Shown here piece after piece: positions 6,027 through 38,462 of a stretch of DNA of 64,000 bases. The first letter of the stretch is position 1; the number at the start of each line of letters is the position of its first letter. A model generated the notes under the pieces. That model ran no database searches, was not told where the DNA came from, and worked only from the letters and a program-made list of their open reading frames with translations. The position numbers were made by a program, and so were the translations under genes. The stretch comes from Candidatus Velesiimonas alkalicola (GTDB lineage Bacteria > Omnitrophota > Gorgyraeia > Velesiimonadales > Velesiimonadaceae): contig NDHX01000001.1 of assembly GCA_013626165.1 (NCBI GenBank), positions 100,817 to 164,816 on the forward strand, read 5' to 3'.

Positions 6027-8606
6027 ATGGCTATAACAGGTTCTATTGTTTTATCCATCCTTGAGAGCGGATTTTCAAAATTTTCACAGCACCAGACTGT
6101 TGTAAGACAGTTGTCAAATGGCATGGATGTTATAGTGTGTTCAATGGGTGAAAACAATTCGGCATCTGTTCAGGTATGGGTTGCAGCAGGAAGCTCAACC
6201 GAATACCAATGGTCGGGGGCCGGTATATCACACCTTCTTGAACATATGATATTTAAGGGTTCATCAAAAATAACAGGAAAACAGATCGGAGACAGGGTTA
6301 AGGCTATCGGGGGTAAAATCAATGCATATACCTCACATGAAAGAACAGTATTTTTTATTGACTGTCCTAAAGAATATGTTAAAGATGCAATAGAGATTTT
6401 ACATATGATACTTTCGGAGCCTTTGTTTGACCGGCAGGAACTTGAAAAGGAAAAAAATGTAATATTAAGAGAAATGGATATGAGACAGGATTCTCCTGAT
6501 AGGGAAATATCTGAGACACTGTGGGAGACTGCATTCAGGGTTCATCCGTATAAGATTCCAGTGATAGGATATCCTGAACTTTTTAAGAAACTTACAAGAG
6601 AAGACCTTGTAAAATATTATAAGAATTTCTATGGCTCAGAACACTGTGTTCTTGTTGTTGCAGGTGGTATCCAGATTGAAGATGTATTAAAAAAAGCAGA
6701 AATATTTTTCAGTTTTCAAAGGTCCGGTCCTGTTAAAAATCCGGTTGCTCTGGAGCCTCCTCAACTTTCACAAAAAAAGATTCGCAAGACTATGCCTGTG
6801 GATATTGCAAGGTTCATCACTGCATTCCATGGTCCAAGTTTTTATTCACCAGACCTTTATCCGATGGATATGCTTTCTGTTATACTCGGGCAGGGTAGAC
6901 CTTCAAGACTCTATCAAAGACTTATTCAAAAAGAAAATCTTGTATATTCAGTGGACAGCTGGTCTTATACACCGAAAGACCCCGGACTTTTTGGTATATA
7001 TTGCACACTTGATGCAAAAAATTTCGAAAAGGTTGAAAGAATTATTTTTGAAGAAATAGAAAAAATAAAAGAACAGGGTGTAAAAGACGAAGAGATACAA
7101 AGAGCAAAAACAAAAATAGAAAGCGAATATCTTTTTTCAATCCAGACCGCACATGGAACCGCAGCAGATGTAGGTTCTAACTTTGTATTTACAGCAGACC
7201 CGGATTTTTCGGTTTTATATCTAAAAAACATAAAAAAGGTTGATGCTGTATCAATAAGAGAAGCCGTAAAAAAATACCTAACAAATGAAAGATCTGTTAT
7301 TGCAGAACTCTGCTCAGAAGAAAAGAAGACAGTAGAACAGGGTAAGACTGAAAAAGAGTTTTTATCTGTGGAAGAAATAAAACTTCACAATGGGATAAGA
7401 CTTGTTATCCGTCCGAATCCATATGCAAACCTAGTAAGCATAAAGGCTCTTTTCCTTGGTGGGTTAAGAACAGATGAACAGCCCGGCAGTTCCATCGTCC
7501 TTTCTTCAATGCTGGAGTCCGGAACAAGTAAATACAATGCACAGGAACTTGCACTTGAGATAGAAAAAATTGGGGGGCAGAGTTCTGTACATACAGGTTA
7601 CAACTCAATAGGTTGGACAATAGAGGTTCCGCCTGACAATACAGGGAAGGCAATGGACATAATGAAGTCTGTACTTGAAGACTCAGTTTTTCCTGAGGAT
7701 GAGTTCAGTTTAAAAAAATCTCAGGCAATTGCAATAGCAAAACAGGGTTATGAACAGCCCATACATATTGCTCTGAATAGATTGAGAAAAGAACTGTTTG
7801 GAAAACATCCCTACTCAAATCCTCCGGATGGGAATCCAGGTGATTTACAGGATATAAAAATAGAAACGGTTATAAAGCAGGCAGAAGACATAATAAATCC
7901 TCAAAATATGGTTTTATCAATATTCGGGAATTTTTCTAAAAAAGAAACAGAAGACAAAATAAAAGCATCTTTTGGTTCAATCAAACCTGGGAAAGAATTT
8001 AAAATTCAACAGATTCCTTTAGATTTTCCAGAAGCGCCGAAGACCATTGAAGAAGAATTTGATGGAGAAGGGGCCTGTATTGTAATAGGTTTTCCCGGCA
8101 CAACAATGTATTCAGATGACAGATATATATTAGATGTGCTTGCCAATGCAATGAATGACCAGGGTGGAAGTCTTTATCATAGGTTGAGAGATGAAAAGGC
8201 ACTTGCGTATAGTCTTGGCTCTGCAAATATATCCGGGATTGAACAGGGTGCATTCATATTCCATATACTTACATCTAAGGAGAATGTTAAAGAGGCACAT
8301 ACTGAGATACAGAGGTTTATCAATTCTTTAGCAGAACAAATAGAAGAAAAATCAATTGAACTTGCAAAGGCAGAAGCCATAGGCGCACAGGTTCTTCAAA
8401 CACAGACAGAAGGTGGGCTGGGATTTGCAGTGGGTCTGGATGTCTTGTATGGGATGGGGGCAGATAATCAGGAAAAAAGTCTTGAAAAAATAAAAAGAAT
8501 AAAAATAAAAGATGTAAAAGATGTAATACAAGAATATTTTAATCAGGACAGAAAGGTTACAGTTATACTAGGACCAAAGGATACCCAGAACATAGGTGAC
8601 AGGTGA
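6027..8606 (+). CDS. M16-family zinc metallopeptidase, two fused pitrilysin-like modules
   Basis: Inverted zinc motif HLLEHMIFKG...E. ~855 aa, consistent with two modules. ATG at 6027 is 7 nt after AGGAG. The stop TGA is supplied by the GGTGACA repeat. Confidence 0.8.
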   Translation: MAITGSIVLSILESGFSKFSQHQTVVRQLSNGMDVIVCSMGENNSASVQVWVAAGSSTEYQWSGAGISHLLEHMIFKGSSKITGKQIGDRVKAIGGKINAYTSHERTVFFIDCPKEYVKDAIEILHMILSEPLFDRQELEKEKNVILREMDMRQDSPDREISETLWETAFRVHPYKIPVIGYPELFKKLTREDLVKYYKNFYGSEHCVLVVAGGIQIEDVLKKAEIFFSFQRSGPVKNPVALEPPQLSQKKIRKTMPVDIARFITAFHGPSFYSPDLYPMDMLSVILGQGRPSRLYQRLIQKENLVYSVDSWSYTPKDPGLFGIYCTLDAKNFEKVERIIFEEIEKIKEQGVKDEEIQRAKTKIESEYLFSIQTAHGTAADVGSNFVFTADPDFSVLYLKNIKKVDAVSIREAVKKYLTNERSVIAELCSEEKKTVEQGKTEKEFLSVEEIKLHNGIRLVIRPNPYANLVSIKALFLGGLRTDEQPGSSIVLSSMLESGTSKYNAQELALEIEKIGGQSSVHTGYNSIGWTIEVPPDNTGKAMDIMKSVLEDSVFPEDEFSLKKSQAIAIAKQGYEQPIHIALNRLRKELFGKHPYSNPPDGNPGDLQDIKIETVIKQAEDIINPQNMVLSIFGNFSKKETEDKIKASFGSIKPGKEFKIQQIPLDFPEAPKTIEEEFDGEGACIVIGFPGTTMYSDDRYILDVLANAMNDQGGSLYHRLRDEKALAYSLGSANISGIEQGAFIFHILTSKENVKEAHTEIQRFINSLAEQIEEKSIELAKAEAIGAQVLQTQTEGGLGFAVGLDVLYGMGADNQEKSLEKIKRIKIKDVKDVIQEYFNQDRKVTVILGPKDTQNIGDR

Positions 8607-19649: not shown

Positions 19650-20048
19650 ATGGAAAAACAGACAATACAATGGCATCTTATGGATGCAAAAGGAAAGGTT
19701 CTCGGAAGGTTGGCGATACAGATTGCAAAAATTTTACAGGGAAAACACAGAGTAGAGTATCAAAGACATCTTGCCGGAAATCATGATGGGGTTGTTGTAA
19801 TAAATGTAGAGTCTATTACAGTTACCGGGAATAAGGATAAACAAAAAGTATATACTAAATATTCGGGATATCCGGGTGGATTGAAAAAGGTTTCATTTAT
19901 GGAGATGAAGAAAAAAGCGCCCTGTGAAATTATTCGTCATGCAGTTAAAGGTATGCTTCCCAAAAATAAGTTGCAGGCAAGAATGCTCAGGCACTTAAAA
20001 ATATTTGAAAAAGAAGCACCGTTGTCAGTTTTAAGTATGTGTAAATAA
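19650..20048 (+). CDS. rplM: 50S ribosomal protein L13
   Basis: W.L.DAKGKVLGRLA...VV.INVESITVTGNK...KGMLPKNKL. Confidence 0.9.
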   Translation: MEKQTIQWHLMDAKGKVLGRLAIQIAKILQGKHRVEYQRHLAGNHDGVVVINVESITVTGNKDKQKVYTKYSGYPGGLKKVSFMEMKKKAPCEIIRHAVKGMLPKNKLQARMLRHLKIFEKEAPLSVLSMCK

Positions 20049-20064
20049 TTAAAAAGGACTTAAA

Positions 20065-20454
20065 ATGGAAATCTCTGTATTTACAGTAGGAAGAAGAAAA
20101 GAAAGTGTTGCAAGACTTCAACTTCAGGATGGAACCGGGAAAATACTTATAAATGGAAAAACACTTGATAAATATTTTGTAAGGGACACATTAAAAGTAC
20201 TGGTAAAACAGCCGTTAGATGCTACAAAAATGCTGGATAAATTTGATATTGATGTTGATGTTTCAGGTGGCGGAATATCATCGCAGGCAGAAGCTATAAG
20301 ACACGCACTGGCAAGGGCACTGGTAAAAGTAGATGAAACAATAAAACCAATCCTCCGTAAGAGCGGTTTTTTAACAAGAGATCCAAGAATGCGTGAAAGA
20401 AAAAAATATGGACAGGAAGGCGCGCGAAAAAGATTTCAGTGGACAAAACGTTAA
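20065..20454 (+). CDS. rpsI: 30S ribosomal protein S9
   Basis: GRRKESVARL...GGGISSQAEAIRHALARAL...KRFQWTKR. Confidence 0.92.
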   Translation: MEISVFTVGRRKESVARLQLQDGTGKILINGKTLDKYFVRDTLKVLVKQPLDATKMLDKFDIDVDVSGGGISSQAEAIRHALARALVKVDETIKPILRKSGFLTRDPRMRERKKYGQEGARKRFQWTKR

Positions 20455-20646
20455 ATATGAATCCAGGGTCTTTTTTTATTACTGCTGTTTTATTCATAAT
20501 ACATACCTTGGTATTGGGTGTTCTTTCAGAAAAATATCTTGCAGGTAGAGTATATCCCGATATGAAAATCCCCGTTCAGGACTTGTTCTTGATGGTGTAG
20601 AACAAAAACAGCTTACCAGATTAAAATTACATTTAGGAGTATACTG

Positions 20647-20852
20647 AAATTCCGACATAAGGATGAAAAACTAACTCTTCCCCTTTTCTTAAAAGGGGTG
20701 GCAGACCGAAGGTCTGACGGGGTATTTAACCCCTTTCTTTAAAAGGAATACCTACAAAGCCATGGAGATATTGAATACCCCGTCTGCTACCGCAGACACC
20801 CCTTTACAAAAGGGGAATTAAATACTTGCTTAACCCTTATGTCGGAATTTCG
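20647..20852. repeat. 206-bp element closed by a perfect 17-bp inverted repeat (GAAATTCCGACATAAGG) and holding at least 6 internal GC-clamped hairpins
   Basis: Hairpins CCCCTTTTCTTAAAAGGGG, CAGACCgaaGGTCTG, GGGGTatttaACCCC, GTCTGCtaccGCAGAC and CCCCTTTacaAAAGGGG, between rpsI and tRNA-Thr. Confidence 0.55.
20719..20740 (+). terminator. rho-independent terminator-like hairpin (GGGGT-attta-ACCCC + TTTCTTT)
   Basis: Read directly. Lies downstream of rpsI, inside the palindromic element. Confidence 0.45.
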
Positions 20853-20991
20853 GTTAAGAATATATAGAATTATAACATATATTGTTTTGGTGGACCCTGT
20901 TGAACCTGCCTGCCTTAAGAGAGGGAATTTTCTCTAAACGGTATAAAGCAAAAAATTAAGACTAATTTTTGCCGATAAAAGCAGAACAGGT

Positions 20992-21064
20992 GCTGCTGTA
21001 GCTCAGTCGGCAGAGCACGTCCTTGGTAAGGACGGGGTCATGGGTTCAATTCCCATCAGCAGCT
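20992..21064 (+). tRNA. tRNA-Thr (anticodon GGT)
   Basis: Cloverleaf folds by hand: acceptor GCTGCTG/CAGCAGC, D arm GCTC..GAGC, anticodon stem CGTCC/GGACG with loop TTGGTAA, T arm ATGGG-TTCAATT-CCCAT. CCA is not encoded. Confidence 0.9.
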
Positions 21065-21148
21065 TTAAAAAAATATAAAAGAAAAAATACTTAAAGGCAA
21101 AAAGTAAAGTGACTGGTGCCTGATGCACTGGCAAACAGGAGGTAAAAA

Positions 21149-22351
21149 ATGGCAAAAGAAAAATTTCTCAGGACAAAACCGCATGTAAATGTAGGGACCA
21201 TAGGACATGTTGACCATGGAAAAACAACACTGACAAGTGCAATAACAAAAGTATTATCTAGCAAGGGATTGGCTCAGGCAAAGACATTTGAAGAAATAGA
21301 TAATGCGCCTGAGGAAAGAGAAAGAGGAGTAACAATAAATGTACACCATGCGGAATATCAAACACAGAACAGGCACTATGCACATGTGGACTGTCCAGGT
21401 CACGCAGACTATATAAAGAATATGGTTACAGGAGCGGCACAGATGGACGGAGCAGTATTAGTGGTAAGTGCAGTAGATGGTCCTATGCCGCAGACAAGAG
21501 AACACATACTTTTGGCAAGACAGGTGGGAGTTCCTGCAATGGTGGTGTTCTTAAACAAAACAGATGCAGTAGAAGATAAAGAATTAGTAGATTTAGTTGA
21601 AATGGAAGTGCGAGATTTATTAAGCAAATATGAGTTTCCTGGGGATAAGATACCGGTGGTAAGAGGAAGTGCATTAAATGCAATGAACTGTGGATGTAGC
21701 AAAGATGATTGTCCAAACTGCAAGTCCATACTGGAATTGATGTCAGCAGTAGATAGCCATATACCTGAGCCTGTAAGAATAACGGACAGGGCATTTTTAA
21801 TGTCCGTAGAAGATGTATTTAGCATAAGCGGCAGAGGAACAGTAGGAACAGGAAGAGTAGAAAGAGGAATAGTCAAAGTAGGAGAAGAAGTAGAAATAGT
21901 AGGGATACAGACAGAGAGCAGAAGGACAGTAGTAACAGGGGTAGAGATGTTCAGGAAGTTGTTAGACGAAGGAAGAGCAGGAGACAACATAGGGGTATTG
22001 TTAAGAGGGATAGAAAAAAAAGACTTAGAAAAAGGGATGGTCATATCGGCACCAAATACAATAACGCCACACACACAATTCAAGGCACAGGTATATGTAT
22101 TAACAAAAGAAGAAGGTGGAAGACACACACAATTTTTCAGCGGCTACAGGCCTCAGTTTTTCTTCAGGACAACAGATGTAACAGGAGTAATAACATTACC
22201 GCAAGGAACAGAAATGATAATGCCTGGCGACAATGTATCTGCAACAGTAGATCTGATAGTACCTGTGGCAATGGAAAAAGAGCAAAGATTTGCAATCCGC
22301 GAAGGAGGAAAGACAATAGGAGCAGGCGTGGTAACAGAGATAATAAAATAA
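21149..22351 (+). CDS. tuf: elongation factor Tu (copy 1, tufB-like position after tRNA-Thr)
   Basis: [23 protein letters not shown]. 400 aa. It differs from copy 2 by one residue. Confidence 0.95.
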
Positions 22352-37259: not shown

Positions 37260-38462
37260 ATGGCAAAAGAAAAATTTCTCAGGACAAAACCGCATGTAAA
37301 TGTAGGGACCATAGGACATGTTGACCATGGAAAAACAACACTGACAAGTGCAATAACAAAAGTATTATCTAGCAAGGGATTGGCTCAGGCAAAGACATTT
37401 GAAGAAATAGATAATGCGCCTGAGGAAAGAGAAAGAGGAGTAACAATAAATGTACACCATGCGGAATATCAAACACAGAACAGGCACTATGCACATGTGG
37501 ACTGTCCAGGTCACGCAGACTATATAAAGAATATGGTTACAGGAGCGGCACAGATGGACGGAGCAGTATTAGTGGTAAGTGCAGTAGATGGTCCTATGCC
37601 GCAGACAAGAGAACACATACTTTTGGCAAGACAGGTGGGAGTTCCTGCAATGGTGGTGTTCTTAAACAAAACAGATGCAGTAGAAGATAAAGAATTAGTA
37701 GATTTAGTTGAAATGGAAGTGCGAGATTTATTAAGCAAATATGAGTTTCCTGGGGATAAGATACCGGTGGTAAGAGGAAGTGCATTAAATGCAATGAACT
37801 GTGGATGTAGCAAAGATGATTGTCCAAACTGCAAGTCCATACTGGAATTGATGTCAGCAGTAGATAGCCATATACCTGAGCCTGTAAGAATAACGGACAG
37901 GGCATTTTTAATGTCCGTAGAAGATGTATTTAGCATAAGCGGCAGAGGAACAGTAGGAACAGGAAGAGTAGAAAGAGGAATAGTCAAAGTAGGAGAAGAA
38001 GTAGAAATAGTAGGGATACAGACAGAGAGCAGAAGGACAGTAGTAACAGGGGTAGAGATGTTCAGGAAGTTGTTAGACGAAGGAAGAGCAGGAGACAACA
38101 TAGGGGTATTGTTAAGAGGGATAGAAAAAAAAGACTTAGAAAAAGGGATGGTCATATCGGCACCAAATACAATAACGCCACACACACAATTCAAGGCACA
38201 GGTATATGTATTAACAAAAGAAGAAGGTGGAAGACACACACAATTTTTCAGCGGCTACAGGCCTCAGTTTTTCTTCAGGACAACAGATGTAACAGGAGTA
38301 ATAACATTACCGCAAGGAACAGAAATGATAATGCCTGGCGACAATGTATCTGTAACAGTAGATCTGATAGTACCTGTGGCAATGGAAAAAGAGCAAAGAT
38401 TTGCAATCCGCGAAGGAGGAAAGACAATAGGAGCAGGCGTGGTAACAGAGATAATAAAATAA
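37260..38462 (+). CDS. tuf: elongation factor Tu (copy 2, str-operon position)
   Basis: Identical to copy 1 except A vs V at one position (gca vs gta). Confidence 0.95.

Follow-up and report, generated by a model that had tools for sequence, protein, structure and literature searches.

MITEs (miniature inverted-repeat transposable elements), which are short and non-coding and carry terminal inverted repeats (TIRs) matching those of an insertion sequence (IS), have been described in several bacteria, including Correia/NEMIS in Neisseria, RUP in Streptococcus pneumoniae, and MITEAba12 in Acinetobacter (PMC6382973). A further system relevant for comparison is MIC231, a mobile insertion cassette bounded by IS231 ends in the Bacillus cereus group (PMC2266710, PMC3913671). 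Here we describe a 210-bp palindromic element that lies between rpsI and a tRNA-Thr gene in a stretch of 64,000 nucleotides (hereafter the window) of Candidatus Velesiimonas alkalicola (contig NDHX01000001.1, positions 100,817 to 164,816). We interpret this element as a MITE that would be mobilised in trans by an IS4-like transposase and that inserted into the rpsI–tRNA-Thr spacer, a reading to which we assign a probability of roughly 0.93.

The IS4 family, with which the putative parent elements are compared below, is characterised by a transposase signature of Y-(2)-R-(3)-E-(6)-K and by target duplications of 7-13 bp (De Palmenaer et al. 2008, PMC2266710). Membership criteria comprise duplications of ~10 bp and 5'-CA or 5'-CT ends (Table 1 of PMC2266710); within the family, 5'-CT ends occur in the IS10, IS50, and ISPepr1 subgroups, and the target duplications of IS701, ISH3, and IS1634 measure 4-6 bp (PMC2266710).

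The window element resembles Correia/NEMIS, RUP, and MITEAba12 in being short and non-coding with IS-matching TIRs, and shares with bacterial MITEs the presence of target duplications in its family, occurrence at several intergenic loci, and folding into a long hairpin. It differs from the named elements in its TIR sequence and parent IS group, in its uncultured, Omnitrophota-like host, in an interior of two inverted hairpin modules that most likely derive from a DUF559 cassette, and in its low known copy number, which amounts to two copies in the window organism and one in a closely related strain. A parallel to MIC231 is found in a 582-bp relative of the element (locus L180), a TIR-bounded unit in which a passenger gene, encoding a DUF559 protein, replaces the transposase; here, however, both the passenger and the IS group are different, and the window element, which has no passenger, would represent a deleted MITE form.

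Results

Ends shared with transposase-encoding elements

The element is closed by a perfect 17-bp inverted repeat, GAAATTCCGACATAAGG, located at 20646-20662 with its exact reverse complement at 20835-20851. An earlier note on this stretch had reported a perfect 17-bp repeat closing a 206-bp palindromic element between rpsI and tRNA-Thr; both are present, but the repeat begins one base further to the left than given there, and it widens to 19 bp with one mismatch (left end CTGAAATTCC..., reverse complement of the right end CCGAAATTCC...), so that the element spans 20644-20853 and measures 210 bp. Within the window the 17-mer had no other match even at 3 mismatches (0.21 expected), and blastn-short detected no part of the element a second time in the same 64 kb. 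Coordinates of all features are collected in Table 1.

In three metagenomic loci, the partner arm of this repeat lies 2.2-2.6 kb away: L181 (2620 bp, with both TIRs perfect), L188 (2293 bp), and L102 (2179 bp). The 19-bp TIR of the window element is identical to both ends of L181 and shows 1-2 mismatches to the ends of L188 and L102. Each of the three encodes a DUF6788 protein of 126-150 amino acids (PF20586, E 1e-9 to 4e-22) together with a transposase of the DDE_Tnp_1 type (PF01609, E 1e-9 to 4e-19), the latter as a single open reading frame (ORF) of 459-514 amino acids with no frameshift. The order TIR-DUF6788-transposase recurs in at least five further loci (L112, L148, L177, L097, L161, L123, L142). 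One of these, L148 (2033-2348, BBPF01011856.1), in which a TIR is followed by the start of the DUF6788 ORF, stems from the reactor metagenome in which the window organism also occurs. At 226-330 of L188, which is the same element as L097, sequences close to that of the TIR occur twice within the left end (CTGAAATTTCGTCATATTT and AAGAAATTCGGGCTTATGG) and could be extra transposase-binding sites.

An exact scan of a metagenome collection with the 17-mer returned 101 loci, in which it forms the conserved end, CTGAAATTCCGACATAAGGA, of many unrelated elements of 150-360 bp. The dinucleotide CT precedes it in 59 of the 101 hits (~6 expected), and A follows in 62. Sequences 3' of the 17-mer fall into more than 10 unrelated families, the largest with 12, 8, and 5 members; in these largest families the 5' flank differs in every copy and many copies sit at contig ends, as is consistent with a dispersed repeat. 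An inverted partner arm, imperfect and with up to 4 mismatches, lies 93-360 bp away in many of the 101 loci, and, if the CT/AG dinucleotides are counted as part of the element, many copies lie between clean direct repeats of 8-11 bp. Viral contigs contained no match to the 17-mer, and plasmid records matched neither the element nor the transposase.

Two further observations were made on the surroundings of these ends. The motif GTCAAG occurs 16-35 nt upstream of the CT end at 9 of 53 distinct insertion sites, where ~0.7 would be expected (5' flanks that bear it include L098, L123, L142, L146, L147, L161, L168, L182, and L183); the IS group may prefer such target sites, or it may insert close to promoter-like TTGTCAAG boxes. 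At L091 (187-280) and L108, a minisatellite of the CCCTTGTTTCCCTTG type directly follows the TIR.

Sister copies in the same organism and a close strain

The S9 protein encoded upstream of the element is identical to that of 'bacterium Unc6' (Table 1). A second Unc6 copy of the element lies on contig L186 (BBPF01000928.1), the proteins of which are identical to Unc6 proteins MBA2124131.1 and MBA2124133.1. This 194-bp copy is located between prs and hisG and has the same 9 bp at both flanks. Its alignment to the window element extends over the full length (BLASTN, 74% identity over 222 columns, with the differences mostly central), the CT...GG asymmetry of the ends is common to both copies, and the predicted fold has the same architecture (-85.2 kcal/mol, z = -8.4). 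The two copies also have an identical 36-mer in common (window 20691-20726), which would introduce a branch into a k=31 de Bruijn graph such that a unitig extending from rpsI is predicted to stop at 20720. Four independent Logan contigs stop at exactly this position, providing independent evidence for the co-occurrence of both Unc6 copies in those samples. A 97-bp version is found in L134, from a closely related strain whose proteins share 90% clusters with those of Unc6, between a small nrdH-like ORF and a skp ORF (both putative readings). The earlier note had held that further copies of the 17-bp repeat would point to a MITE, and further copies of the element exist in Unc6 itself and in the close strain, while the repeat recurs at the metagenome loci.

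At its own site the element is present in all seven independent assemblies that reach it, which represent this organism or a strain 99% identical to it, and a single-nucleotide polymorphism (T20739C) is the only variation. In the scaffolds L086 and L087 of the 99%-identical strain (BBPF and BBPG), over the stretch that corresponds to window ~20636-20960, runs of N start at ~20900 in L086 and where the MITE begins on the left in L087, and stop near 20960; the N stretch at 20900-20960 (L086, L087) lies outside the MITE and is not accounted for by it.

An orthologous site without the element

The spacer from rpsI to tRNA-Thr measures 537 bp in the window versus 315 bp in a relative, L089/L090, with an S9 protein 69% identical. 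The spacer of this relative aligns up to approximately window position 20645 and resumes before the tRNA, and the ~200 bp of the element are absent in between. L089/L090 is the only relative in which the rpsI–tRNA-Thr synteny is retained. Beyond 'bacterium Unc6', the closest S9 proteins reach 60-69% identity, those with names belonging to metagenome-assembled genomes of Omnitrophota; relatives at 64-66% have argC after rpsI and hence no orthologous site, and other distant relatives have argC or different genes there. In a scan of a genome collection with S9, the best relative was 58% identical, and tRNA-Thr followed rpsI in 0 of 17 checked loci, so that these could not serve for comparative folding.

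Interior modules and a DUF559 cassette

The hairpins clamped by G4/C4 belong to two inverted copies of one module, which consists of a CCCCTTT-loop-AAAGGGG palindrome, a short hairpin, and then GACGGGGTATT. The left-type module is also present in L186 and in L151/L172/L189 (with CAACgaaGTTG instead), and it is tandemly duplicated in L180. Across the 1.13 Mb examined, the module was confined to TIR-bounded elements except for one probable chance match (L162), and an independent spread of CCCC/GGGG modules was rejected for this reason.

The L180 cassette has the same TIRs as the window element, an 8-bp duplication (ATAATAAA), tandem modules, and an ORF for a DUF559 protein (PF04480, E 1.7e-25). 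Positions 152-208 of the window element match the right end of this cassette at 93% identity, and both end modules of the window element are common to it. Moreover, ATGCTACCTTATAACCC, which comprises the first codons (MLPYNP) of the DUF559 ORF, is kept in the centres of L186 and of L151/L172/L189. From the shared modules and this retained stretch, we read the short elements as most likely deletion derivatives of a DUF559-carrying cassette, a relation akin to that between MIC231 and IS231. In the DUF559 ORF of L180 itself (7944-8402, minus strand), a 45-nt palindromic module lies in frame in the middle of the ORF (RIPRPSRTPLLEKGE) and another forms the C-terminus (IPCPSGTPLLQKGN), an arrangement that recalls the in-frame palindromic insertions known from Rickettsia.

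Predicted folding and coding content

RNA folding of 20640-20860 gave -91.5 kcal/mol for the plus strand (z = -10.0) and -98.7 kcal/mol for the minus strand (z = -11.3), and 0 of 200 shuffles were as good in either case. The predicted fold is nested: a closing stem of ~20 bp encloses the CCCC/GGGG palindromes, which pair with each other, and these in turn enclose a three-arm junction formed by the CAGACC hairpin, a long GACGGGGTATTTAA/TTGAATACCCCGTC arm, and the GTCTGC hairpin. The earlier note had described at least six G4/C4-clamped hairpins and a GAATACC direct repeat. The direct repeat and the five internal palindromes that it listed are indeed present, but the fold is one nested structure rather than a series of hairpins side by side. 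Similar folding of both strands is what is expected of a DNA palindrome, and the extreme predicted stability is an outcome of the long imperfect palindrome, with its two inverted ends and two inverted modules, and not evidence for an RNA gene. No ORF of at least 25 amino acids lies wholly inside the element; two ORFs merely overlap its ends (20494-20658, minus strand, 54 amino acids; 20839-20937, plus strand, 32 amino acids).

Table 1 Features of the element and its neighbours in window coordinates, with target duplications of family members listed by locus.
Feature	Position	Strand	Details
Whole MITE, 210 bp	20644..20853	.	borders from family consensus ends CTGAAATTCC...GGAATTTCAG
Left TIR, CTGAAATTCCGACATAAGG	20644..20662	+	identical to both ends of autonomous IS in L181
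Right TIR	20835..20853	-	reverse complement CCGAAATTCCGACATAAGG, one mismatch at position 2
Left interior module	20680..20729	.	CCCCTTTTCTTAAAAGGGG palindrome, CAGACCgaaGGTCTG hairpin, then GACGGGGTATTTAA
Variable centre	20730..20770	.	third, partial CCCCTTTCTTTAAAAGG copy; no counterpart in L186
Right interior module, inverted	20771..20815	.	TTGAATACCCCGTC, GTCTGCtaccGCAGAC hairpin, then CCCCTTTACAAAAGGGG palindrome
Palindrome CCCCTTTTCTTAAAAGGGG	20680-20698
Palindrome CAGACCGAAGGTCTG	20702-20716
Palindrome GGGGTATTTAACCCC	20719-20733		followed by TTTCTTT
Terminator-like site, GGGGTATTTAACCCC+TTTCTTT	overlaps 20719-20740		reaches into variable centre
Palindrome GTCTGCTACCGCAGAC	20782-20797
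Palindrome CCCCTTTACAAAAGGGG	20799-20815
GAATACC direct repeat	20746-20752 and 20773-20779
Possible decayed target-site duplication, left	20632..20643	.	TTTAGGAGTATA
Possible decayed target-site duplication, right	20854..20864	.	TTAAGAATATA
rpsI, upstream neighbour, outside element	20065..20454	+	Pfam PF00380; S9 identical to 'bacterium Unc6'
tRNA-Thr(GGT), downstream neighbour, outside element	20992..21064	+
Target duplication, L092			AAGGTGTGA
Target duplication, L128			TGACACCCA
Target duplication, L122			GAGGAGATCC
Target duplication, L136			TCCAGAACGAT
Target duplication, L150			TAGGGGTCTT
Target duplication, L168			TGCCTTCTCTA
Target duplication, L179			GGTAAAATATG
Target duplication, L186			TATTTCATA, 9 bp

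Classification of the parent elements

The parent ISs resemble the IS4 family in several respects: their transposases are of the DDE_Tnp_1 type with IS4 as the best NCBIfam model, their ends start with 5'-CT (CTGA), as in IS10, IS50, and ISPepr1, and the duplications in the group measure 8-11 bp, unlike those of IS701, ISH3, and IS1634. In addition, the ISPepr1 end consensus YT-AA-YTT---A (Table 1 of PMC2266710) specifies 8 positions, and CTGAAATTCCGAC agrees with it at 6 of them. They depart from the family, however, in that all three parent transposases have the spacing Y-(2)-R-(3)-E-(7)-K, in that the best model, NF033592 (IS4), scores 42-66 bits against a cut-off of 115, and in that the elements are 2.2-2.6 kb long with an extra DUF6788 ORF upstream. 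The IS1380, IS701, IS1634, and IS1182 models score below the IS4 model, and no NCBIfam cut-off is reached. On these sequence features we regard the group as IS4-like without assigning it to the IS4 family. The parent transposase has 756 homologues in the protein database at E<=1e-10, mostly on contigs of 2-2.7 kb, and its profile had no significant match among PDB sequences. We found no papers on the parent IS group, the TIR string, DUF6788, or 'bacterium Unc6', and the curated models give the group no name.

Repetitive extragenic palindromic (REP) elements are palindromes of 20-40 nt that have a conserved 5' GTAG head and are linked to a Y1 transposase. Assignment of the window element to this class (REP/BIME, RAYT) was rejected, as it has no GTAG head and its ends match ISs with a DDE transposase.

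Neighbouring sequences

Past tRNA-Thr, the gene order continues with tuf, rpmG, tRNA-Trp, secE-nusG, and the rplKAJL-rpoBC cluster. The ~190 nt that follow the rpsI stop codon (20455-20645) are ~68% conserved with the relative L090. This conservation possibly reflects a conserved leader or 3' untranslated region; L090 has no ATG there, and a later indel shifts the frame. Within this region, a candidate ORF (20457-20600, plus strand) shows differences in FFITAVLFIIHTLVLGVLSEKYLAG that fall mostly at third codon positions, a pattern that suggests a hydrophobic small protein of 47 amino acids. The window also contains two tuf genes (21149-22351 and 37260-38462) that differ at 1 of 1203 nt; their identity continues for 81 nt on the upstream side and 41 nt on the downstream side, a sign that gene conversion may have taken place recently. 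NCBI contigs L001 and L002 end near window position 21109 because of this tuf repeat.

Discussion

The earlier note had offered three candidate explanations for this locus, namely a MITE, a structured non-coding RNA (ncRNA), and a multi-terminator insulator, and the first of these is the one that our results favour: the element ends in the TIRs of transposase-encoding ISs, copies occur at unrelated loci, the sister copy in Unc6 is flanked by a duplication, and the orthologous site of the syntenic relative is empty.

Several observations nevertheless weigh against this interpretation and call for caution. The flanks of the window copy agree at only 5 of 9 positions ungapped, or 9 of 11 with one gap, which is not significant alone, and its two ends differ at one TIR base. 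No target duplications were seen at the three full-length ISs (L181, L188, L102); this is probably because their contigs are short and little longer than the IS, and the flanks may stem from different copies. A tblastn search of the 64-kb window with the transposase, DUF6788, and DUF559 proteins of the family found no match, such that no transposase accompanies the element there. The only autonomous copy seen in the reactor metagenome of the window organism, L148, has a flank of 53% GC and hence belongs to a different host, making it a possible source of the transposase or of horizontal transfer. The empty site comes from a single relative, in which a deletion is formally possible. Lastly, equivalent hairpins differ between copies yet stay palindromic (GTCTGC/GCAGAC, GCCTG/CAGGC, GTCC/GGAC, and CAGACC/GGTCTG versus CAAC/GTTG), which hints at some selection on hairpin formation that a purely selfish-DNA account does not need. 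Should selection keep these hairpins, the copy could have been domesticated at the 3' end of the rplM-rpsI transcript, as a terminator or an RNase III element, or the hairpins could be needed as DNA for transposition, though we consider this doubtful. As for the type of duplication, a 'TA' target duplication of the mariner-like kind was rejected, since the flanks do not fit it.

The alternative that survives best accepts the origin of the element as a MITE and adds a function, in which the double-stranded RNA stem or the GGGGTATTTAACCCC-TTTCTTT hairpin would have been co-opted as a terminator or RNase III site that parts rplM-rpsI from the tRNA-Thr-tuf unit. Roles in termination and RNase III processing are documented for the Correia elements of Neisseria. 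Between rpsI and tuf, the sole terminator-like site lies inside the element: a scan of 20000-21300 gave one hit, a stem at 20719-20733 followed by TTTCTTTAAA. The element is moreover co-oriented with both flanking transcription units, and it is present in all seven assemblies of the organism that reach the site. The TTTCTTT site had been noted earlier for its resemblance to a terminator, and this resemblance holds to the extent of the one hit; the stem, however, has just 5 pairs, is buried in the global fold, and is missing from L186. No terminator-like site occurs in the spacer of the relative that is devoid of the element, so the gene pair has no obvious need of one. We therefore consider co-option unlikely, and a multi-terminator insulator as originally proposed finds no support in a single weak hairpin that the sister copy lacks.

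Far less probable is a structured ncRNA gene, the stable transcript of which would measure ~200 nt and have a closing helix of 20 bp and a junction with multiple arms. In length, and in the long helix formed from its 5' and 3' ends, such an RNA would resemble 6S RNA and other RNAs of ~200 nt, and the very stable fold (z = -10) is in keeping with it. Some details of the pairing also favour the plus strand as RNA: the 20th closing pair, U20645-G20852, is a wobble on this strand and a C-A mismatch on the minus strand; in L186, A→G changes at two left-arm positions still permit G-U pairing; and one helix pair in the GTCTGC hairpin is altered on both sides between the Unc6 copies (U-A to C-G). Two full-length sequences are nonetheless too few for covariation, the minus strand folds slightly better than the plus strand, as a DNA palindrome would, and the centre, which is branched unlike in 6S RNA and similar RNAs, is not conserved between copies. 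Nor did covariance models recover the element. The failure to match 6S, RNase P, tmRNA, or SRP motifs that had been reported previously agrees with our search of Rfam 15, which at the gathering threshold returned only two tRNA hits in the whole window and at E<=10 gave only noise in 20440-21000 (<=19 bits against gathering scores of 50-90). An ncRNA gene would also be at odds with the identity of the ends to those of transposase-encoding ISs, with multiple copies at unrelated loci that have target duplications, and with the absence of the element from the syntenic relative.

Equally remote is the scenario in which a full-length IS decayed in situ by losing its interior, such that the element is what remains of it and was never mobile in its short form. 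The match of its ends to IS ends and the want of a clean target duplication at the window copy would suit such decay. At an unrelated Unc6 locus, however, L186 is a copy of the same size class (~190-210 bp) with the same modules and end asymmetry and with a 9-bp duplication, which indicates that the short form itself transposed; its flanks differ from those of the window copy, as they would not after a segmental duplication, and the interior of the window element has nothing in common with those of the ISs. The idea that palindromes have clustered by chance in AT-rich intergenic DNA, for which the low GC content of the region (38%) alone would speak, is already refuted by the shuffles on either strand, the 17-mer expectation of 0.21, and the homologous elements elsewhere.

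Returning to the interpretation as a MITE, we can outline how the element would have come to its present position. It keeps only the 19-bp TIRs that a DDE transposase acting in trans would recognise, together with a lineage-specific palindromic interior. By analogy with IS10 and IS50, from which the cut-and-paste and trans steps of this outline are taken, the transposase would bind the CTGAAATTCCGACATAAGG ends, excise the element, and insert it with a staggered cut, which would give rise to the 8-11-bp target duplications. The window copy would have inserted into the spacer that separates the rplM-rpsI operon from the tRNA-Thr-tuf unit, after the split from the nearest sampled relative, a direction of events that we infer.

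Under this interpretation the element would be ordinary selfish DNA, and a false lead, that of a new housekeeping RNA beside the ribosomal-protein/tuf cluster, is removed. The MITE also accounts for breaks and gaps of short-read assemblies at this site. Its parents form an uncatalogued IS4-like group, defined by CTGAAATTCCGACATAAGG ends, an accessory ORF for DUF6788, a YREK signature of the E-(7)-K variant, and 8-11-bp duplications, and this group has given rise to many MITE families in hosts that range from ~37% GC to GC-rich. Specialists in mobile elements are unlikely to be surprised by these findings, which would acquire greater import only if the element had been co-opted for transcript processing.

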